A DNA stretch of 40,665 bases from a virus. Taxonomy: Duplodnaviria; Heunggongvirae; Uroviricota; Caudoviricetes. Made by a program: the position numbers and the translations under genes. The notes under the pieces are model-generated. The model saw only the letters and a program-made list of their open reading frames with translations. It was not told the DNA's origin and did no database searches. Shown piece after piece: positions 3,154 through 11,821 of the stretch (the stretch's first letter is position 1; every line of letters starts with the position of its first letter). The stretch lies in IMG/VR virus record IMGVR_UViG_2687453300_000007; one strand, 5' to 3'.

Positions 3154-3432
3154 ATGACCAAAGAGCATGCACAAGGTGTATTTATCCGTTTTATTGATTT
3201 TCGCGGTGAACTGTTATTACGCGCATCAGCCATTGACGGAGTTGTTCCATCCGAAAAAAATGCAGCTACTTACGTTTATCTGAACGGCACGCGCCTGACC
3301 GTAGAACTTCCGTACCAGACTGTACACGAAATCATTAGCGAAGCGGAAAAAGCACGTAAGACTAATGGCGATGAACCCTATATCGAAATTATTTGTATGG
3401 ATTCAGAAGCAGAAATTCAGAAAGCAGATTAA
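3154..3432 (+). CDS. Hypothetical early protein (92 aa)
   Basis: ATG 3154 in the frame of the 3094..3432 track ORF, placed just after the preceding stop. Confidence 0.45.
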   Translation: MTKEHAQGVFIRFIDFRGELLLRASAIDGVVPSEKNAATYVYLNGTRLTVELPYQTVHEIISEAEKARKTNGDEPYIEIICMDSEAEIQKAD

Positions 3433-3443
3433 AGGGCGTTGCG

Positions 3444-3686
3444 ATGGGCAAAGAATATAAAACTCTCATTAACAAAGCACTTGAGCGTTTTTATTTTCGC
3501 TTAAGTGCATCAGGCGCTCATGCTGAACGTGCAGCCCGTGACTCATTGACCAGGGCAATCCGGAGTCTGTATGACGTGGCTTTTTACGCTGATGATCTGG
3601 ATGCACTTAACGAACTTTCCGAGCTGATCTGTGCCGCAGAATGCGGGGAACATATTGAACCGTATAAGCTGGGGAATATCGCATGA
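3444..3686 (+). CDS. Hypothetical early protein (80 aa)
   Basis: ATG 3444 in the frame of the 3393..3686 track ORF. Confidence 0.45.
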   Translation: MGKEYKTLINKALERFYFRLSASGAHAERAARDSLTRAIRSLYDVAFYADDLDALNELSELICAAECGEHIEPYKLGNIA

Positions 3687-3796
3687 GTATATTTATGTCA
3701 TGGATTGTTCTGATTATTTCAGTGGTCTGCGCAATTGGCATTGTGCGAATTATTCATTCAGTAAAAAAGATTGAACGTTTTTTCACTGGTGAATAA
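3683..3796 (+). CDS. Small hydrophobic peptide (37 aa), putative
   Basis: ATGA overlap with the previous gene. Translation MSIFMSWIVLIISVVCAIGIVRIIHSVKKIERFFTGE is a single TM helix with a basic tail. Below the ORF-track size cutoff. Confidence 0.3.
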   Translation: MSIFMSWIVLIISVVCAIGIVRIIHSVKKIERFFTGE

Positions 3797-3889
3797 CGAT
3801 ACAAATAAAACATCAAATTAAATAAGAAAACGTGAAAACCATCCGTATTAACGGAGGTATTCGCACACGCAAATAACGGAGATACAAAA

Positions 3890-4300
3890 ATGCACGCAAA
3901 AGAAGAAGGTATCATCAGAGCACTGAAAGAAATTTCAAAGACAGAAAACGAAGTAGCGAAAAAAGCCATAGCAAATAATCATATGGACGTCGCAACCCAC
4001 ACACTGATAGTCGCAAGAGTCACGGCAGAAGCAGCCGAAATTATCGCAAAACAGGATGCTGAACTGGCGGTTCTCAGAACACAACCAGTCACCGGACTGG
4101 ATTTGTCTAACACCGGACGCCTTATTTACACAATTGGCTCGGAGCTACAGCGATACACCATTATCGCCGGGTTACAGGATAAATACCTGATCACTCCTCA
4201 CCCCATAAGGGAATCAGAAATTCTGACAAATCTCCGCCTGATAGAGCGCTCTCAAGTCGCATTCATTGATGACGCACAGTGCACCGTATTTAACGCATAG
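3890..4300 (+). CDS. Hypothetical early protein (136 aa)
   Basis: Track ORF; ACGGAGA SD upstream of ATG 3890. Confidence 0.5.
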   Translation: MHAKEEGIIRALKEISKTENEVAKKAIANNHMDVATHTLIVARVTAEAAEIIAKQDAELAVLRTQPVTGLDLSNTGRLIYTIGSELQRYTIIAGLQDKYLITPHPIRESEILTNLRLIERSQVAFIDDAQCTVFNA

Positions 4301-4323
4301 AGTTACTGGACAAAGGGGGCGCA

Positions 4324-4527
4324 ATGGCAATTAAGCATTTTCCCGTCGTTCGCTTTACCTCCAGAGGGCGCGAATACGAGGTCGACGAACGCCTGATTAC
4401 CACTATCGACAAACATCGTTCGGAAAAGGATGCACACCACATCTACCTCACTGACGGCACTTACTTCTGCGCCACTAATGTGGCGCGGGTAAACCTTATC
4501 CGACAGGTACAGGAGCCACGCAGATGA
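4324..4527 (+). CDS. Hypothetical early protein (67 aa)
   Basis: Track ORF; 4-bp ATGA overlap with the next gene suggests translational coupling. Confidence 0.45.
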   Translation: MAIKHFPVVRFTSRGREYEVDERLITTIDKHRSEKDAHHIYLTDGTYFCATNVARVNLIRQVQEPRR

Positions 4528-4790
4528 CCATTCTGGACTACATCGCTACTCATCCGGGGTGTAGCGGCGGAGAGATCGCCGCAGCACTGAATACTCCAAC
4601 CACAGCCATTAATGCTGAGTTACGCCAACTTTGGCGCGGCGGCTTAGTCATCAGAACAAACCGCAGCACAGGTGGTCGCGCTCGCAAAACTGGAGGCCAG
4701 GCTTCTTACCACGTAAACCCGATGCCGTTCGGGTGTAGCAATCCACTTACTCACATGTTTAACCAGCTACTGAAGGAAGCCAGAACATGA
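4524..4790 (+). CDS. Hypothetical early protein (88 aa)
   Basis: Track ORF; 4-bp overlaps with both neighbours. Confidence 0.5.
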   Translation: MTILDYIATHPGCSGGEIAAALNTPTTAINAELRQLWRGGLVIRTNRSTGGRARKTGGQASYHVNPMPFGCSNPLTHMFNQLLKEART

Positions 4791-5086
4791 GCACCATCAA
4801 CCACCAGAAGCTACGCGAACTGGCATTTGCCCTGCAACGAATGGCAACACCTCAAAAATTACTGGCATTTCGCGCAATGCTCTCGCCGTCTGCTGCGCTG
4901 GCATTGCTGGATGAGCTGGAGCACGCCAGAACCACGGCTCCTGCCATTCGCCTGACGCTCCATCATGAAATCGCTGATTTCTGCGCGACATTGGAGGTGC
5001 CAGGCGAACCGGAAACGCCGGAAGCAATACAGCAAGAGCTGCTGCAACGTATTGACAAGGTTTTTGATTTTTTTCTGAACCAGTAA
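4787..5086 (+). CDS. Hypothetical early protein (99 aa)
   Basis: Track ORF, translationally coupled to the upstream gene. Confidence 0.5.
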   Translation: MSTINHQKLRELAFALQRMATPQKLLAFRAMLSPSAALALLDELEHARTTAPAIRLTLHHEIADFCATLEVPGEPETPEAIQQELLQRIDKVFDFFLNQ

Positions 5087-5408
5087 GAAACCAGAGCATG
5101 CACACACAAAAAAACCGCTTGCCATGCCGCAATCAGTCAGGTTACATTTCCGCTGCACCTCATAAAACGGGTGCCGGGTTTCGCAGCCTGCTGACTACAC
5201 AAGCGCACAACCGCGCCAGCGGTTTTTTTGTGCGTACTGTATTGCCACGTTTTTTTCGCGTCAGAATTATGGCGGGGCGTACGGGGCCGACTTCGGTCGG
5301 GCCGGGTTCTTGTGTAGCCGGTACTGCGAACCTCGTACGTCTCGCCACCCACAGTTTCGCAGCTCTGGATGGTGAGTTTTCACAACTTACTACACAAGGG
5401 GCCACACC

Positions 5409-5639
5409 ATGGCAAACCGCAAACAGCACCGCGCTATCGCGGAGCGTCGTCACATCCAGACTGAAATCAACCGCAGACTTTCCCGCGCATCACGCGTCGC
5501 GCAAATCATGCACATCAATATGCTGCATGAGCGCAGCCACGCACTATCAAACATTTATTCCGCCTCTGTTTTCAGCTATCTGGCGGATGATCTGCACGAG
5601 CTTCAACAGCTCATCCAGCAGCAAAACAAACTCCATTAA
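5409..5639 (+). CDS. Hypothetical early protein (76 aa)
   Basis: Track ORF immediately downstream of the structured non-coding stretch. Confidence 0.4.
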   Translation: MANRKQHRAIAERRHIQTEINRRLSRASRVAQIMHINMLHERSHALSNIYSASVFSYLADDLHELQQLIQQQNKLH

Positions 5640-5711
5640 TTCCTGTTCCGGGCCTTTCCTGCACCTTGCGGCGGGAGGCCTTCGCACATCTGTAACAAGA
5701 GGATTGCCGCA

Positions 5712-6077
5712 ATGATTCTCGCCAACGACTTTCTTGAATACCTGCTCAATACAGAACGTGATCTTGCCGCTCGCGTGCGTGATCGTTATGACATGTACCT
5801 GAAATCCCTGCCTGTACCGCAGCTCGCTGACGGAAAGATTGTTATTGATGGTCGCTACATGATTGACAGCCACGAGGGAAATTACAGGCTTTACCGCATT
5901 GAAGGTGGCACCCCGTCCGTTATTGGCATTTACCAGCGCCCATCCTCTGCAATCGTCGATGTGATTGCCGACAGCATCCGCATCACACATCGCCATGCCG
6001 ACACAGAAGACACCGTGCTGGAAATTCAGCGGCTGGCTACAGTCTGCCGCGACACCCTGAATGGCATGACGAAGTAA
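5712..6077 (+). CDS. Hypothetical early protein (121 aa)
   Basis: ATG 5712 preceded by AAGAGGA; directly upstream of gene A. Confidence 0.5.
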   Translation: MILANDFLEYLLNTERDLAARVRDRYDMYLKSLPVPQLADGKIVIDGRYMIDSHEGNYRLYRIEGGTPSVIGIYQRPSSAIVDVIADSIRITHRHADTEDTVLEIQRLATVCRDTLNGMTK

Positions 6078-6083
6078 ATCACT

Positions 6084-8906
6084 ATGACGGCAGAGTACCT
6101 CAGGGACTGGCAACAACCGCGCCACGCAGTGGGGCGTGAAGGAACGGGGATCCCCGCTCCTGAATCCGCGCTTTCCTCCTGGCTGGATGCCTACCGGGCA
6201 GAGAACGAGCGCCGCCAGGAAATGGCTGATGCGGCGTTCTCAGCCACGCCGCTGGGCAACCTGATTAATAAAAGCCTGGACGCACAGGAAAAACAGGACA
6301 AAACCATCACACTGGCAGGAGACGCCAGAAAACAGGCACGTGGCGCGGTGGATGAAGCCATGGCCTCGCTGCGCCTGCTGCCGTCCTATCTGCGCGATCC
6401 GCTTATTCGCCACCTCTCCTTCCTGCGCAAAAAACAGGAAGCCGATCGCCGGAAAGGCAAAAAGAGCTGGCAGGCGGAACGCTATGCACGCGGAACCCTG
6501 CGCAAAATATTCGAACGTCTGGATAGCACTGACGGACGCTGGCTGACACCGGGTTATCGCTCCCTTGCCGGACGCGAACGCCTGGACGATTTGCTTTACC
6601 TGCCGCAGCTCAACAAACACCAGATACAGACGCTGGCCACCATGACGGCGGCGATGTTCAGCAGCACCTTCGAAAAACTCTGCGATGGCTTTGGCGCGAC
6701 CGATGGCGAGCTGACCATGGATGTAACCCTGAAGGCGTATCAGATGCTGGCCCGCATGGCGTTACACCTGCACGCCATGCCTCCACATTATGACGCACTG
6801 ACAACAGACAAAGACCGGAGGAACGAACCGGACACGGAGCTGCTGCCGGGCGCAATCCTTCGCCTGACCTGTGCGGAATGGTGGAAACGCAAACTGTGGC
6901 TGTTACGTTGCGAGTGGAGAGAAGAACAACTCCGCGCCGCCTGTCTGGTTTCCAGAAAAACATCACCCTATCTGAGCCAGGACGCGTTAAGCGAGTTTCG
7001 CGCACAGCGCGAGAAAACACGCGATTTCCTGAAAAGTTTCATGCTGGAAAATGAAGACGGGTTCACGATTGATCTCGAGACAGTGTATTACGCGGGAGTA
7101 AGTAACCCGGTTCACCGTAAGGCAGAAATGATGGCCACCATGAAGGGACTGGAACTTCTGGCCGAAGCCCGTGGCGACAAAGCGGTGTTTCTGACTGTCA
7201 CCTGCCCGTCAAAATACCACGCCACAACGGAGAACGGTCATCCGAATCCCAAATGGAACGGGGCCACAATGCGCGACTCCAGCGATTACCTGGTTAACAC
7301 GTTTTTTGCGGCGGTCCGCAAAAAACTGAACCGCGACGGCCTGCGCTGGTATGGCATCCGCACGGTGGAGCCTCATCATGACGGCACCGTGCACTGGCAT
7401 ATGATGGTCTTTGCACATCCGGAAGAAATCGACACCATTGTGTCCCATACCCGCGATATTGCCATTCAGGAAGACCGCCACGAGCTGGGCAATGATATTA
7501 CTCCGCGCTTTAAGGTGGAGTATGTCGACGGCTCAAAAGGCACGCCAACCAGCTACATCGCCACCTACATCGGAAAGAACCTGGACAGCCGCGCCGTGGA
7601 TGGCATCGACCCGAAAACGGGCAAGCCACGCGTGGACCACGAAACCGGAAAATCAATGGCCGAGAGCGTGGAGCGCGCCATCGGCTGGGCGCGCCTTCAC
7701 CGGGTCCGTCAGTTCCAGTTCTTTGGCATCCCCTCCCGTCAGGTGTGGCGTGAACTGCGCCGCCTTGCCAGCCAGATGGCACGCAATCCGGAAGGCCCGC
7801 AACGGCTGAAAGATGATGCAATGGATGCGGTACTCGCTGCCGCCGATGCCGGGTGTTTTGCCACCTACATTGAAAAACAGGGTGGCGTGCTTGTTCCACG
7901 CAAGGACTACCTGATTCGCACCGCCTACGACCTCGCAGATGAGCTGAACGATTACGGCGAACAGAGCGTACAGATTTACGGGATCTGGTCACCACTCATC
8001 GGGGAATCCTCCCGTGTGTGCACGCATCCGGATAACTGGAAGCTGGTAAGACGTAAACCGGAAGCGGAAGACAGCGCCCGCGAAAATGGTTTTGACCTTC
8101 AGGGCGGCCCTGCCGCCCCTTGGACTCGTGGCAATAACTGTCCCCGTGTACAGGAAACGGACAACAACGGGACAGAACAGCCGGAAGAACGGCCAGCACC
8201 GTGGCCGCAGCTCCCTGACGGCGTTGAAGTGAACGAATGGATGCGCTCACTGAAACGACACGAACGCCGGGCGCTGATGCGTTCGCTTCGTGACAAACAG
8301 GCAAAAAACAGCAGCGATGAAATGCAGAGCTGGACACAGAGCCGCAAACAGCAGCGGCCTTTGCCTGATAACCACGAATTACTCGCTAAAGAATGGCGGG
8401 AGTCTGCTGAATCTCTCGGCCTGCATATCGGTGAACAACAGATGCAGCACCTGTTACGGGGCGGCAGTCTGTACGTTGACGGCAGCATCATTGCACCGCA
8501 GGGATTTGAAATTGTACGCAAACCGGATACCCGCCCGGACAGCCGAATCACGCAGCTCTGGCAGCGCCTGAGCCGTAATCATGGCGTAAGCAGCACGGAG
8601 ATCCGCCATAACCCGGTCGCCAGCTATCTGGCACAGCTGGGGGCATCAGACCCTGAAGCCGCCGCACGCCTGGCATCCACACTTCAGCAGGGCCAGAACA
8701 CCATGAAAACACCCGTTACCGTGCTTTCTGACATGCTGCGCGCCATCCGCGACGCAGAGCACGCACAGAGAATCAGTGAAACCACTGAACGCGCCAGCCG
8801 CAAAGCAGACCTGCTGCGGGGTGGCCTGACCAGTGGAAACAAAAAACAGACAGAAACGGGACTTACGAATCCCGTAAATGAGCAAAAAACGCGCAGCGAT
8901 ATATGA
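6084..8906 (+). CDS. A: Rolling-circle replication initiation endonuclease (P2 gpA-like)
   Basis: 940-aa ORF carrying the HUH-type motif region …TVEPHHDGTVHWHMMVF… and tyrosine-bearing segment …YIATYIGKN… typical of P2 A-family proteins. Confidence 0.9.
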   Translation: MTAEYLRDWQQPRHAVGREGTGIPAPESALSSWLDAYRAENERRQEMADAAFSATPLGNLINKSLDAQEKQDKTITLAGDARKQARGAVDEAMASLRLLPSYLRDPLIRHLSFLRKKQEADRRKGKKSWQAERYARGTLRKIFERLDSTDGRWLTPGYRSLAGRERLDDLLYLPQLNKHQIQTLATMTAAMFSSTFEKLCDGFGATDGELTMDVTLKAYQMLARMALHLHAMPPHYDALTTDKDRRNEPDTELLPGAILRLTCAEWWKRKLWLLRCEWREEQLRAACLVSRKTSPYLSQDALSEFRAQREKTRDFLKSFMLENEDGFTIDLETVYYAGVSNPVHRKAEMMATMKGLELLAEARGDKAVFLTVTCPSKYHATTENGHPNPKWNGATMRDSSDYLVNTFFAAVRKKLNRDGLRWYGIRTVEPHHDGTVHWHMMVFAHPEEIDTIVSHTRDIAIQEDRHELGNDITPRFKVEYVDGSKGTPTSYIATYIGKNLDSRAVDGIDPKTGKPRVDHETGKSMAESVERAIGWARLHRVRQFQFFGIPSRQVWRELRRLASQMARNPEGPQRLKDDAMDAVLAAADAGCFATYIEKQGGVLVPRKDYLIRTAYDLADELNDYGEQSVQIYGIWSPLIGESSRVCTHPDNWKLVRRKPEAEDSARENGFDLQGGPAAPWTRGNNCPRVQETDNNGTEQPEERPAPWPQLPDGVEVNEWMRSLKRHERRALMRSLRDKQAKNSSDEMQSWTQSRKQQRPLPDNHELLAKEWRESAESLGLHIGEQQMQHLLRGGSLYVDGSIIAPQGFEIVRKPDTRPDSRITQLWQRLSRNHGVSSTEIRHNPVASYLAQLGASDPEAAARLASTLQQGQNTMKTPVTVLSDMLRAIRDAEHAQRISETTERASRKADLLRGGLTSGNKKQTETGLTNPVNEQKTRSDI

Positions 8907-8951
8907 AGCGCGCACAAAACAGGCAAAAACGGGATTTCAGAATCCCGTAAA
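8854..8951. repeat. Two copies of a 25-bp palindrome-containing element flanking the A stop codon
   Basis: AAACGGGACTTACGAATCCCGTAAA at 8854..8878 and AAACGGGATTTCAGAATCCCGTAAA at 8927..8951 (22/25 identical), each with 6-bp arms ACGGGA/TCCCGT. The second copy sits about 30 bp upstream of the ParM-like start. Confidence 0.6.
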
Positions 8952-8982
8952 CGATTAATTAATCAACATAAGGAAAAGCGAC

Positions 8983-9942
8983 ATGAAAATTTGTATCGAC
9001 GACGGCTCCACCAACATCAAGCTGGCATGGACTGAGAATGGCGAACGCCGCAACGCCATCAGCCCGAACAGCTTCAAGTCGGAATGGTCTGCGCCGTTCG
9101 GTGGCATGCAGCCCGCGAACTACATGCTTGATGGCGTGCGCTATGGTTTTGATCCGGTTAGCGATCGCTTTGTCCAGACGACCGACACGCAATACCAGTA
9201 CAGCGATGTGAATGTAATCGCCATTCATCACGCGCTGGTCAAATCAGGCATCACGCCACAGGAGGTGGATGTGGTTGTCACCCTGCCACTGAGCGAGTAT
9301 TTCGACACAAACGCACAGCCGGACATGGCCAACATCAACCGCAAAAAAGCGAACGTTATGCGCCCGGTGGAATACCAGAACGGCGAAGCATTCACTATCC
9401 GTAACGTGCGGGTTATGCCTGAATCCATTCCGGCTGGCTTTAAAGCACTGGCTGACATGAGTCCGTTTGAATCCCTGCTGATTGTGGATTTAGGCGGAAC
9501 CACGCTGGATGTGGCAAAGGTTCAAGGGCAACTGGCAGGTATCAGCCAGGTGTTTTGCGATCCACACGTAGGCGTTTCCCTGATGGCCGATGCCGTACTG
9601 TCGGTGATGGCCACTAACGGTATGCGCACCAGTCACCACATCGCCAATACCATTATCGAACATCGCCATGATGAAGCCTGGCTGCGCCAGCACATCCACA
9701 ATGACGCGCATTACGCCAGCCTGATGGCGGTTATTCGTGAAAAGGAAGAAACACTGAAACAACGCGTGATCCGCGCGCTGGCGGTTTTTTCGGGTTACGG
9801 GCGGGTGATGGTTGTCGGTGGAGGGGCGGAGATTGTGGCACCCGCTATCCGCGAAGTCTGCGGAGTTAATGCGACTTTCATCGCGGACGGGGTGCCACAG
9901 TTTGCTCTGGTTAATGGGCTGTACGCAATGGACAAGGAGTAA
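8983..9942 (+). CDS. parM: ParM/StbA-like actin-type segregation ATPase
   Basis: N-terminus MKICIDDGSTNIKLAW…ISPNSFK…YSDVNVIAIHHAL closely parallels plasmid R1 ParM as I recall it (MLVFIDDGSTNIKLQW…ISPNSFK…YSDVNVVAVHHAL). Also has the DxGGxT phosphate motif (IVDLGGTTLD). Confidence 0.8.
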   Translation: MKICIDDGSTNIKLAWTENGERRNAISPNSFKSEWSAPFGGMQPANYMLDGVRYGFDPVSDRFVQTTDTQYQYSDVNVIAIHHALVKSGITPQEVDVVVTLPLSEYFDTNAQPDMANINRKKANVMRPVEYQNGEAFTIRNVRVMPESIPAGFKALADMSPFESLLIVDLGGTTLDVAKVQGQLAGISQVFCDPHVGVSLMADAVLSVMATNGMRTSHHIANTIIEHRHDEAWLRQHIHNDAHYASLMAVIREKEETLKQRVIRALAVFSGYGRVMVVGGGAEIVAPAIREVCGVNATFIADGVPQFALVNGLYAMDKE

Positions 9943-9946
9943 ACCA

Positions 9947-10261
9947 ATGACGACACCAACCAGACGGATAAGTTTCTATCTGAAGCCCGCCGCCGTCAAG
10001 AGTGAACAGGAGGCGTGCAATTACCTCGATAGCCTGCCAGCCTCCGAACGCAGCCGCGCGCAACGCGCGGCCTTTCTGGCTGGGCTAGCGCTCATAAAGC
10101 GCAACCCAGCATTTGCCTACTGGATGGCCGAATGGCCAGAGGACAACCTCCCCTTCAATACCGTTAGCATCAAGGAAACATACCAGGATAATCAGCCTAG
10201 CGGAGTTGAATGCAATTTTTATAAAATAAAAAAGAATATTCAGACCTTATTCCCAGAATAA
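9947..10261 (+). CDS. parR: ParR-like centromere-binding protein (putative)
   Basis: ATG 9947 with AAGGAG SD 7 nt upstream, 5 bp after the parM stop. Segment RRISFYLKP…YLDSLPASERSRAQRAAFLAGLAL resembles the RHH N-terminus of R1 ParR (…LDSIPQGERSRLNRAALTAGLAL…). Confidence 0.65.
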   Translation: MTTPTRRISFYLKPAAVKSEQEACNYLDSLPASERSRAQRAAFLAGLALIKRNPAFAYWMAEWPEDNLPFNTVSIKETYQDNQPSGVECNFYKIKKNIQTLFPE

Positions 10262-10344
10262 TCTGATAATTGTATGTGAACTAATAAAATACAGACCAAC
10301 ACATCATTCTGGCACCCTTGCTAACAGGGTGCCAATGTTTCAAA

Positions 10345-11187
10345 TCATGATGAAATTGCCGAAGTTTTTTTATCGTGCTGAAGTACCGCAAATGCCATTA
10401 AAACCTCAAGAGAATAGCGGCGATAATACTTAACAAAACCATAATAAAATACTCGGGATGCAGCAATACAAAACAAGAGAAGAAAACAAAAAGGTAACAG
10501 TCTGATATTTATATCTATTAAAAAGGATAGAAGGAGCAGGAACATAAGCAACCAGACTGAAGCGAGAAAAACAAATGTAATGTTTCTACAAAAACCATAC
10601 AAAGCAACATAGTTTTGCATTTTCACCTGATGATTTTTAGAATGTTCATACACATAATGATAAGCAAGGCGAAAAAGATCGCCCCTCAAGCCCTTACGTC
10701 GATATAGCGTAGATACAGAAAAAACATTTATATAACCATCTCGTATTTGCGGCCAAAAGACTTTAATAAGTATAGAATGCAGTGTGGTTTTATGATGTTC
10801 TGCTTTATCAAAAGCTGATACAGGAAATAAAAAAACTCCACGAATAAAATTAACTATACTGAACTTAGTATTATGTCGTTTTATTTTCAGGGAGCTTCTT
10901 TTAGAAAACAGATAAATTGAAGGATACCCAAGTTTACTGTTCATGTATTTTTCAATTAAACAGGATGATAGAATAGATATGAAGTGACCTGAAATATATG
11001 ATAGAACGATTAATACCACATATATAAATACACTTATTATTTCTTTATATTTCAGGATATGGTTAAGAATACCTTCTATATAAACAGGGTTAATTTCAAT
11101 AGAAAACAAAAAAAGGATAAACAGGAATAACCCACCTGGAATTAGATAGCCCAAAAAGTCATAAAATGAAAACGGATTCTGTGTCAC
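10345..11187 (-). CDS. Hypothetical polytopic membrane protein (280 aa, about 4 TM)
   Basis: GTG start at 11187 with strong SD (AGGGGGAAG). Two N-terminal and two C-terminal hydrophobic helices flank a soluble stretch of about 125 aa. AT-rich with atypical codon usage. No family recognised. Confidence 0.6.
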   Translation of the reverse strand: MTQNPFSFYDFLGYLIPGGLFLFILFLFSIEINPVYIEGILNHILKYKEIISVFIYVVLIVLSYISGHFISILSSCLIEKYMNSKLGYPSIYLFSKRSSLKIKRHNTKFSIVNFIRGVFLFPVSAFDKAEHHKTTLHSILIKVFWPQIRDGYINVFSVSTLYRRKGLRGDLFRLAYHYVYEHSKNHQVKMQNYVALYGFCRNITFVFLASVWLLMFLLLLSFLIDINIRLLPFCFLLLFCIAASRVFYYGFVKYYRRYSLEVLMAFAVLQHDKKTSAISS

Positions 11188-11226
11188 ACTTCCCCCTGTG
11201 TTACTTGTAAATTAAAGGGTAAAACA

Positions 11227-11724
11227 TTATTTGTTTTTCCGTAAAGGATTAGCTTTCCATCTTCTTACTAACCATTCGAATTCTTGATATGTAGTATCCG
11301 AATTAATGCTTTCTCTGATTGCTTTAATTAATGGCTCGGCAATATCATATGTCTCTACAACTGTTGTGTAAGATGTTCTTTTTATCATTTTTTCATCATA
11401 AATACCTTCACGAATACTTACAGCAACTCGCTCGTAAAAATTTAAAATATATTGAAATTTTCGACGCTCGGCCATTTCTTCATCTGTTATTATGCAACCA
11501 TCACAAGGAAAAACATAAGAACGAAATGATTTGCCTGAACGATGCACTTGTTTCAGGGTATGCAATGACTCTATATATTGCATATCTTGCCGACTCTCAA
11601 AAAGAAAGTTGGCCGTTTGAGTTTTTTTTGCGGTACGCACATTGTAGATAATGGTTCCAATGGCAACCAAAACGCCAAGCAGAACAATAGCATTGCTGAT
11701 GATTTGTAGTGTTATTGGGTTCAT
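11227..11724 (-). CDS. Hypothetical single-pass membrane protein (165 aa)
   Basis: N-terminal TM helix (ITLQIISNAIVLLGVLVAIGTIIY) followed by a soluble domain of about 135 aa. Lies 39 bp upstream of the 280-aa gene on the same strand. AT-rich. Confidence 0.6.
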   Translation of the reverse strand: MNPITLQIISNAIVLLGVLVAIGTIIYNVRTAKKTQTANFLFESRQDMQYIESLHTLKQVHRSGKSFRSYVFPCDGCIITDEEMAERRKFQYILNFYERVAVSIREGIYDEKMIKRTSYTTVVETYDIAEPLIKAIRESINSDTTYQEFEWLVRRWKANPLRKNK

Positions 11725-11738
11725 CCTATTTCATCCAT

Positions 11739-11765
11739 AAAAAAGGCGGGGAGCAAATCCCCGCC
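11739..11765 (-). terminator. Intrinsic terminator/attenuator immediately upstream of the 165-aa gene
   Basis: On the minus strand: 8-bp GC stem GGCGGGGA / TCCCCGCC with a 5-nt loop, followed by TTTTTTAT. It ends 14 nt before the ATG at 11724. Confidence 0.6.
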
Positions 11766-11785
11766 TCATTAGAGGTCAACGTAGC

Positions 11786-11821
11786 TTAGAAACCATCAAA
11801 TTCATCATACATTTTTTTCAT
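11786..11821 (-). CDS. Putative 11-codon leader peptide (MKKMYDEFDGF)
   Basis: Minus-strand ATG 11821 preceded by GAGGGGG SD at 5-nt spacing. Stop at 11786..11788, about 20 nt upstream of the terminator stem. Confidence 0.3.
   Translation of the reverse strand: MKKMYDEFDGF

Follow-up and report, generated by a model that had tools for sequence, protein, structure and literature searches.

Two spaced dyads before parM in a P88-like prophage as a probable parC-like centromere site

The virus record IMGVR_UViG_2687453300_000007 (40,665 nucleotides [nt]; referred to in full as the window, to which all positions refer) is a P88-like prophage of Escherichia coli (Xuanwuvirus, Peduoviridae; P2-type) with the gene order A, parM, parR. 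At the junction of A and parM it carries two similar palindromic elements, E1 (8854-8878) and E2 (8927-8951). Our analysis suggests that E1 and E2 are probably bound by ParR and form the core of a parC-like centromere/operator (region 8840-8955) belonging to the parM-parR (parMR) cassette of the prophage. We base this reading on the invariant GC cores of the dyads, their free centers, their spacing of about seven helical turns, their co-inheritance with parMR, and the location of the site directly upstream of parM. ParR is proposed as the ligand because it is the sole DNA-binding protein in the cassette. From the sequence we infer that ParR is the binder, that the site functions as a centromere, and that parMR is autoregulated. 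ParMRC systems with their parC sites are textbook knowledge, and the parMR genes of these prophages are already annotated as plasmid segregation genes; a literature search found no paper on P88-type parMR or its cis site.

Results

Two dyads within a 42-nt repeat

E1 (AAACGGGACTTACGAATCCCGTAAA) lies inside the final codons of gene A, and E2 (AAACGGGATTTCAGAATCCCGTAAA) ends 31 nt before the parM ATG (8983). The two elements are identical at 22 of 25 positions and start 73 bp apart, so that the coordinates and counts given in a preliminary description, including a distance of about 30 bp between the second element and the parM start, are all confirmed. E1 has the structure ACGGGA(CT)-TACG-(AA)TCCCGT with AAA flanking it on both sides; on the plus strand it forms a dyad of 6+6, or of 8 with one C.A mismatch, which corresponds to a G.U pair on the minus strand. 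The 6-bp dyad ACGGGA/TCCCGT described before is present in both elements, but E2 is really a perfect 8+8 dyad, ACGGGATT-TCAG-AATCCCGT, with a 4-nt center. Likewise, the 25-bp element does occur twice, but the repeat unit is longer and comprises 42 nt at 83% identity (8840-8881 versus 8913-8954), in which an A-rich tract precedes the dyad. Unit 1 (8840-8881) consists of the tract CAAAAAACAGACAGAA and E1, and its left end coincides with a boundary of the cassette (see below); unit 2 (8913-8954) consists of CACAAAACAGGCAAAA and E2. No strand is assigned to the elements or the units.

The degenerate 25-mer (up to 3 mismatches) occurs in two places only in the 40,665 bp, E1 and E2, and the pattern ACGGGA-N4-12-TCCCGT likewise finds only these two; neither had a match in 100 dinucleotide-preserving shuffles. 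We also considered a dispersed repeat of the REP or MITE type, which is ruled out by the copy numbers: there are two copies in the window, and E. coli genomes with a 150-nt region containing the elements have it at one place (median), always at the A/parM junction.

The DNA around the dyads is rich in phased A-tracts. The spacer between them (8879-8926, plus strand) holds the gene A stop codon TGA (8904-8906) and further helically phased A-tracts, and short AAAAC(A/G)G tracts can be read off the sequence at 10-bp steps within each 42-nt unit. Between -160 and -15 the AAA periodicity is 10.5 bp, a signal reached by 4 of 1,000 mononucleotide shuffles, and the A-tract period of the parC of plasmid R1, used as a control, is likewise 10.5 bp.

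The dyads and their spacing recur in distant lineages

The preliminary description had proposed conservation in related prophages as a check on the elements, and here the comparison was positive. Prophages of Hafnia (L211) and Plesiomonas (L214) encode a ParM that is 62% identical to that of the window and a ParR that is 43% and 40% identical, respectively, and the 150 nt upstream of their parM have almost wholly diverged from the window. In all three lineages two GGG-N10-CCC dyads stand before the parM ATG, at -125/-52 in the window, -128/-55 in Hafnia, and -131/-59 in Plesiomonas, which corresponds to a spacing of 73, 73, and 72 bp. Elsewhere, the same pattern occurs twice in 40.7 kb (window), three times in 8.0 kb (Hafnia), and once in 8.0 kb (Plesiomonas); a rough estimate from these motif rates puts the probability that two dyads would match by chance in both position and spacing at about 1e-5 or less per lineage. 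In a three-way alignment the invariant columns cluster on GGGA...AA.CCC, on CGGG...A.CCC, and on ATTAAT(CAA) before the Shine-Dalgarno sequence. In Hafnia and Plesiomonas the arms are no longer complementary outside GGG/CCC, as in the Plesiomonas dyad GCGGGACAACAAAAACCCGA, and the stem is down to 3 to 4 bp; no T-run follows these dyads on either strand.

Further searches added little to the set of lineages. A ParM-based search of species-representative genomes yielded three near-identical loci only, one of them in a genome assembly labeled Vagococcus, and a search of IMG/VR with the Hafnia and Plesiomonas ParMs yielded one extra locus only (L218), with the other architecture described below for Serratia and Enterobacter. 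One further ParM (P0018), 81% identical to that of the window, is encoded at the very end of a contig that lacks the DNA upstream of the gene. The pattern AACGGGA-N8-ATCCCGT was also searched in IMG/VR and discarded as a probe; it gave at least 120 single matches in unrelated environmental contigs, the chance level for 14 specified bases.

Variation among E. coli-type sequences

Alignment of 82 relatives gave 48 distinct sequences, and the per-column statistics were calculated on 47 of them, omitting a misaligned deletion variant (L148). The inner GG/CC of each dyad is invariant in all 47 sequences. The centers of the dyads are the most variable parts (0.066 and 0.106, versus 0.007 to 0.078 for the arms), with CACA, TACG, and CACG in E1 and TCAG, TAAA, and TGAA in E2. 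An invariant core with a variable center is the usual pattern of a site for a dimeric protein and would fit such a site here.

Departures from the stems are all single substitutions and nearly all transitions. None of the pairs in the 48 distinct sequences had changed on both sides, and the covariation score was 0.057, compared with a shuffled mean of 0.058. Changes in E1 produce C.A on the plus strand and G.U on the minus strand (24 cells), and those in E2 produce G.T on the plus strand and an A.C mismatch on the minus strand (30/376 cells). Because the single changes thus permit G.U pairing on one strand in E1 and on the other in E2, neither strand can be singled out from them. Selection for a hairpin would be expected to leave traces of which we see no sign on either strand, although with so little divergence this argument by itself is not decisive.

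The dyads travel with parMR and not with gene A

Several natural rearrangements separate the fate of the dyads from that of gene A. In E. coli SA31-1 gene A is 97% identical up to window position 8794 and then has another end (...DKGNSEKKK*); downstream of it an AAA ATPase and an S8 peptidase are encoded in place of parMR, and there are no dyads. In L002 the parMR cassette is replaced from 8794. An IMG/VR relative (L196) has a nonhomologous segment of A in place of window positions 8320 to 8842, and homology returns at 8842, in the first bases of unit 1. In the Hafnia prophage the gene 5' of the dyads is an unrelated 167-codon open reading frame (ORF; 167 aa) and not A. On the sequence comparison, E1 and E2 belong to the parMR cassette and are inherited with parMR and not with gene A; the link to parMR is drawn because the SA31-1 A allele without parMR lacks the dyads, because L196 rejoins at 8842, and because the Hafnia upstream gene is not A. 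Co-inheritance with parMR, and loss where parMR is missing, holds across the lineages compared. Relatives of ParM at 54 to 62% identity are all encoded in P2-like prophages just past gene A. A P2-type replication origin with the nick site of A was another candidate, and it is ruled out by the 97% identical SA31-1 A gene, which lacks both elements.

Two deletions affect the units themselves. In L148 (IMGVR_UViG_2657245439_000011) an exact 73-bp deletion, equivalent to window positions 8878 to 8950, fuses unit 1 to unit 2 and leaves a single hybrid dyad, and gene A ends there with ...KTGFKNPVTD* at the TAA of GATTAATTAA. This variant could serve as a ready-made one-site mutant, and it is the only case of a collapse to one copy among the 82 sampled relatives. 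In L006 a 5.8-kb deletion (3154 to 8948) ends in the right arm of E2, and parMR remains without dyads or gene A. Independent end-points of rearrangements cluster at or near the units, at 8842 (L196), 8794 (L002), and 8948 (L006), which could come from selection or from recombination promoted by hairpins or repeats.

The parMR genes

parM (8983-9942, plus strand) encodes an actin-like segregation ATPase (Pfam StbA_N, 2.7e-82; ParM_N, 1.1e-68) that is about 51% identical to the closest plasmid ParMs, and the adjacent parR (9947-10261, plus strand) encodes a ribbon-helix-helix centromere-binding adaptor (Pfam Plasmid_stab_B, 7.7e-29). The sole solved relative of ParR is PDB entry 2jd3 (titled STBB PROTEIN; E value of 0.012), which we take to be the ParR of pB171. 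The ribbon-helix-helix core of the window ParR aligns with that of R1-type ParR, including the N-terminal RRISFYL strand. On these sequence matches, parM-parR is a genuine type II (ParMRC-type) pair with an R1/pB171-type ribbon-helix-helix adaptor, and by Pfam ParR is the only DNA-binding protein that the cassette encodes. The site thus has the place and a candidate partner of a parC, directly upstream of adjacent plus-strand parM and parR genes with a ribbon-helix-helix ParR as the adaptor.

Gene A (6084-8906, plus strand) encodes the rolling-circle replication endonuclease (Pfam Phage_GPA, 4.9e-131), and its 3' tail, from about 8842, overlaps the parMR cassette and includes E1. Window positions 8400 to 9400 are 100% identical to the phages vB_EcoM-569R5 and 705R2 and 98.9% identical to P88, and the same A/parM junction is present in 1,372 of 5,426 complete E. 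coli genomes, about a quarter.

Alternative explanations

Both hairpins could act in RNA. On the minus strand each has 8 pairs (including one G.U in E1) followed by a T-rich run (ACGGGATTCTGAAATCCCGT-TTTTTGCCTGTTTTG and ACGGGATTCGTAAGTCCCGT-TTCTGTCTGTTTTTTG), so that the earlier statement that neither element has a terminator-grade U-tract holds for the plus strand and fails for the minus strand. A simple consensus scan calls both hairpins terminator-like on that strand, the 42-nt unit read there is exactly a hairpin plus T-tail, the free energies of -10 to -13 kcal/mol are lower than those of shuffles, and minus-strand cargo genes lie downstream (10345-11724). E1 and E2 might accordingly be intrinsic terminators, either as a tandem pair or as one with a back-up, that halt leftward or antisense transcription through parMR before it reaches gene A. 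The comparison makes this very unlikely, without disproving it: many E. coli variants have an eroded T-run, reading ...TCCCGC-TTTCGCC on the minus strand with three T only, Hafnia and Plesiomonas keep the GGG/CCC cores and the spacing with a minimal stem and no T-run, the common E2 substitutions are the minus-strand A.C mismatches mentioned above, and compensatory changes were not found. Moreover, 1.4 kb and the entire parMR operon separate the elements from the end of the nearest minus-strand gene (10345), which lies in a cargo region that is variable among relatives and holds plus-strand genes in P88. We attach a similarly small probability to stem-loops in the plus-strand early-operon mRNA, which would affect mRNA processing or stability at the A/parM junction or tune the translation of parM. 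No plus-strand terminator separates A from parM, and the region is therefore probably transcribed through; the plus-strand folds reach -9.0 and -10.7 kcal/mol (z of about -3), and in E2 the frequent substitutions keep G.U on the plus strand, with 99% of cells paired. E1, however, has plus-strand C.A mismatches in about one-third of the distinct sequences, the lack of double-sided changes and of covariation speaks against a selected stem, and the stems beyond GGG/CCC are lost in Hafnia and Plesiomonas. Rfam, searched with gathering and permissive thresholds, gave no match at threshold near E1 or E2 (the best scored 16 bits, compared with a gathering score of 79).

It is also unlikely, if a little less so, that the duplication is a functionless recombination scar, either left over from an alternative 3' end of gene A or formed as a junction sequence when P2-like phages exchanged cassettes. 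Read in the frame of E1, unit 2 encodes ...TKQAKTGFQNPVND* and terminates at the TAA of GATTAATTAA; the natural deletion variant L148 uses this very reading, and three independent end-points (L196, L148, and L006) fall at or in the units. A scar would not explain why two copies are kept 72 to 73 bp apart in lineages that are otherwise diverged upstream of parM, one of them, Hafnia, without A as the upstream gene, nor why collapse to one copy is so rare. In addition, the 31 nt 3' of each repeat unit are mutually unrelated, and hence the arrangement is not a simple recent tandem duplication. Comparably improbable is the binding of a protein other than ParR, such as a nucleoid or regulatory protein of the host or a different phage regulator of the A/parM junction. 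A dyad with a variable center is generic for dimeric DNA-binding proteins; the sites, however, co-occur with parMR and are absent where parMR is replaced, and no other DNA-binding protein is encoded in the cassette. We know of no motif of P2 regulators that the dyads fit; the dyad of Ogr-type late promoters is TGT-N12-ACA, to which E1 and E2 do not conform. In favor of another protein, characterized ParRs prefer direct repeats (PMC9426499).

Discussion

How would E1 and E2 work as ParR sites? We hypothesize that ribbon-helix-helix dimers of ParR recognize the (C)GGGA and TCCC(G) half-sites of each dyad. The distance of 73 bp corresponds to about seven helical turns and would place both dyads on the same face of the DNA, and the A-tract-phased DNA between them is probably bent. 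Two occupied sites would then nucleate one ParR-DNA complex that captures the ends of ParM filaments, and the resulting ParR-DNA-ParM complex would move or position circular phage genomes, either during replication or in a plasmid-like state. ParR bound at E2 would probably also dampen the expression of parMR because E2 is only 31 nt from the parM start.

A number of observations weigh against the parC-like reading. There are only two widely spaced copies, each dyad-symmetric, and no tandem iteron array like that of R1. All characterized ParRs bind adjacent direct repeats, of 11 bp in R1, 10 bp in pB171, and 20 bp in pSK41 (PMC9426499), and in the prophage ParR could in fact contact the phased AAAAC-type tracts instead of the dyads. 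The parC of R1 embeds the par promoter, whereas a consensus scan of the plus strand from 8500 to 9000 found no sigma-70 consensus promoter between or at the dyads. In the window both hairpins fit the pattern of minus-strand terminators. The E. coli arms are barely more conserved than their flanks, because the overall divergence within E. coli is low, and the two-dyad layout is common to three independent lineages only, the next clade being laid out differently.

For a promoter of parMR there are weak candidates only. Manual inspection of the three lineages pointed to ATGAGC-N16-TATATG between the dyads and to TTTCAG/TTTAAA-N17-ATTAAT overlapping E2, neither of which is convincingly conserved. 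The motif ATTAATCAA (8958-8966, plus strand), just 5' of the Shine-Dalgarno sequence AAGGAA (8970-8975), is kept in the three dyad-bearing lineages and may be a weak -10-like element; the conserved ATTAAT(CAA) is weak as a -10 motif, and its -35 in the center of E2 is poor. Since the search turned up no convincing promoter, transcription probably enters parMR from the early operon. The preliminary description had suggested that the elements could be operator or centromere-like sites for ParR. The comparative evidence supports this suggestion in part; an operator is not established by the promoter search, and an operator role for E2 is only a possibility. The motif ATTAATCAA is also the core of an AT palindrome, TTAATTAATCAA (8955-8966), between E2 and the Shine-Dalgarno sequence; this core is kept in E. 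coli, Hafnia, and Plesiomonas and not in the Serratia/Enterobacter clade.

The candidate site shares several features with known partition sites and departs from them in others. Like characterized parC sites, which lie upstream of parM (PMC9426499), and like that of R1 in particular, it is located directly 5' of parM in a parM-parR operon, in A-rich DNA with 10.5-bp phased A-tracts, and its repeats are a whole number of helical turns apart. The R1 ParR is a homologous ribbon-helix-helix adaptor with 31% identity and a shared ...D.LP..ERSR..RAA..AGLAL core. The parC of R1, according to the account of Dam and Gerdes (1994) given in PMC9426499, has ten tandem 11-bp direct iterons of the AAAAC type, arranged as two blocks of five with a clear promoter between them. 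The prophage, in contrast, has two 42-nt units with a GC-core dyad and no recognizable promoter; one unit lies inside the upstream replication gene, and the host element is an integrating P2-like prophage and not a plasmid. The par1 site of pB171 and the parC of pSK41 resemble it in having few repeats 5' of parM, to which ribbon-helix-helix ParR dimers, or dimers of dimers, bind and wrap the DNA into a segrosome (PMC9426499; PMC2099191), but these repeats (10 bp in pB171 and 20 bp in pSK41) are adjacent and direct and not dyads 73 bp apart. The proposed two-dyad site differs from every characterized parC, also in that part of it overlaps the last codons of the upstream replication gene.

The next clade of prophages has a different layout. 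P2-like prophages of Serratia and Enterobacter (L215, L216, L218, and L223) have their site at the same position, after A and before parM-parR, with a related half-site, AAAACGGGAAC ... GTTCCC, flanking the parM-upstream region. About 60 bp separate its left arm GCAAAAACGGGAAC from the inverted GTTCCC arm, and between the arms are inner iterons, GATATAGAAAAAT and an inverted copy; unlike the two compact dyads, this is one large inverted repeat, GGGAAC-GATATAGAAAAAT-N27-ATTTTTCTGTTTC-GTTCCC. The N-terminus of ParR in this clade reads NRKISFYL, versus TRR[IV]SFYL. The inner iterons resemble those of the parC of IncL/M and IncF plasmids (L207 to L210), the nearest plasmid relatives, in which blocks of GTATTTTTCT-type iterons 5' of parM repeat at 73- and 83-bp offsets, and one of which (L210) has a promoter-like core, TTTACA-N16-TAATAA, between the blocks. 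The offsets in R1-type parC are 95 to 116 bp. The recurrence of a 73-bp offset in plasmid parC may be meaningful or a coincidence. When the 150-nt region was searched in a plasmid database, all matches were to the phage itself, as integrated or circular copies, and none was to the parC of a plasmid.

That a prophage can combine actin-like filaments with adaptor sites upstream of the operon has a functional precedent, by analogy, in the Corynebacterium prophage CGP3, whose AlpA/AlpC/alpS system, with repeated adaptor sites in the upstream region of the operon, serves to move or replicate the phage DNA after induction (PMC5539076). The likeness lies in an integrated prophage that combines an actin-like protein, a DNA adaptor, and repeated upstream sites. 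The adaptor is unrelated, the repeats are short and of unrelated sequence (TTAAnnG), and both the host, an actinobacterium, and the type of phage differ.

More tentatively, and with the doubt that such a step deserves, we propose that this prophage family (P88/Xuanwuvirus with kin in Hafnia, Plesiomonas, Serratia, and Enterobacter) might have a working actin-type segregation machine and an undescribed dyad-type centromere, composed of two GGG-N10-CCC sites seven turns apart with one in the coding end of the replication gene. Such a system could place or segregate circular phage genomes while they replicate, or it could support a stable, plasmid-like carrier state. The biological context of a parC-like site is made plausible by the CGP3 precedent and by a circular record of 34,461 bp with the same A-parM-parR junction (NZ_CP148288.1; L226). 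This record is listed as a nonmobilizable plasmid in a complete E. coli assembly and has the size of a phage genome; it reflects either an episomal form or the assembled DNA of induced phage.

The carriers of this prophage type include O157:H7 and ST131 strains. The cis site offers a handle on whether an integrating P2-like phage moves its DNA by actin filaments, as does CGP3, whether the phage can persist as a plasmid, and whether the prophage exerts partition incompatibility against plasmids. If ParR does read dyads 73 bp apart, the repertoire of type II centromeres widens to adaptors that read inverted as well as direct repeats; if it does not, E1 and E2 are merely the conserved junction sequence of a mobile cassette.

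Other features of the window and its relatives

The Vagococcus assembly mentioned above (Vagococcus sp. WN89Y, a Firmicute assembly; NZ_JBQPOM010000071.1, L004) contributes a 226-kb contig with a ParM that is 97% identical to that of the window, and it is probably an enterobacterial contamination or a mislabeled assembly. Beyond parR, a low-GC island (10300-11800, minus strand; 30 to 34% GC, versus about 55% in the flanks) contains two minus-strand ORFs. One of them, of 280 aa, is membrane-like by sequence and has no Pfam match and a weak PADLOC match to Csx27 (1.1e-5), and the other, of 165 aa, encodes a DUF4760 protein (1.8e-34). We regard the place after parR as a variable cargo slot because P88 holds different, plus-strand genes there.

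In the early/immunity region 5' of gene A, two plus-strand RNAs match Rfam families at gathering level, the Hfq-binding RNA isrK (5155-5229; 65 bits) and the C4 antisense RNA (5265-5352; 83 bits). They adjoin a gene annotated in P88 as encoding a derepression protein, and the stretch 5155-5352 is an antisense-RNA immunity module of the P1/P7/P4 style within a P2-like prophage.

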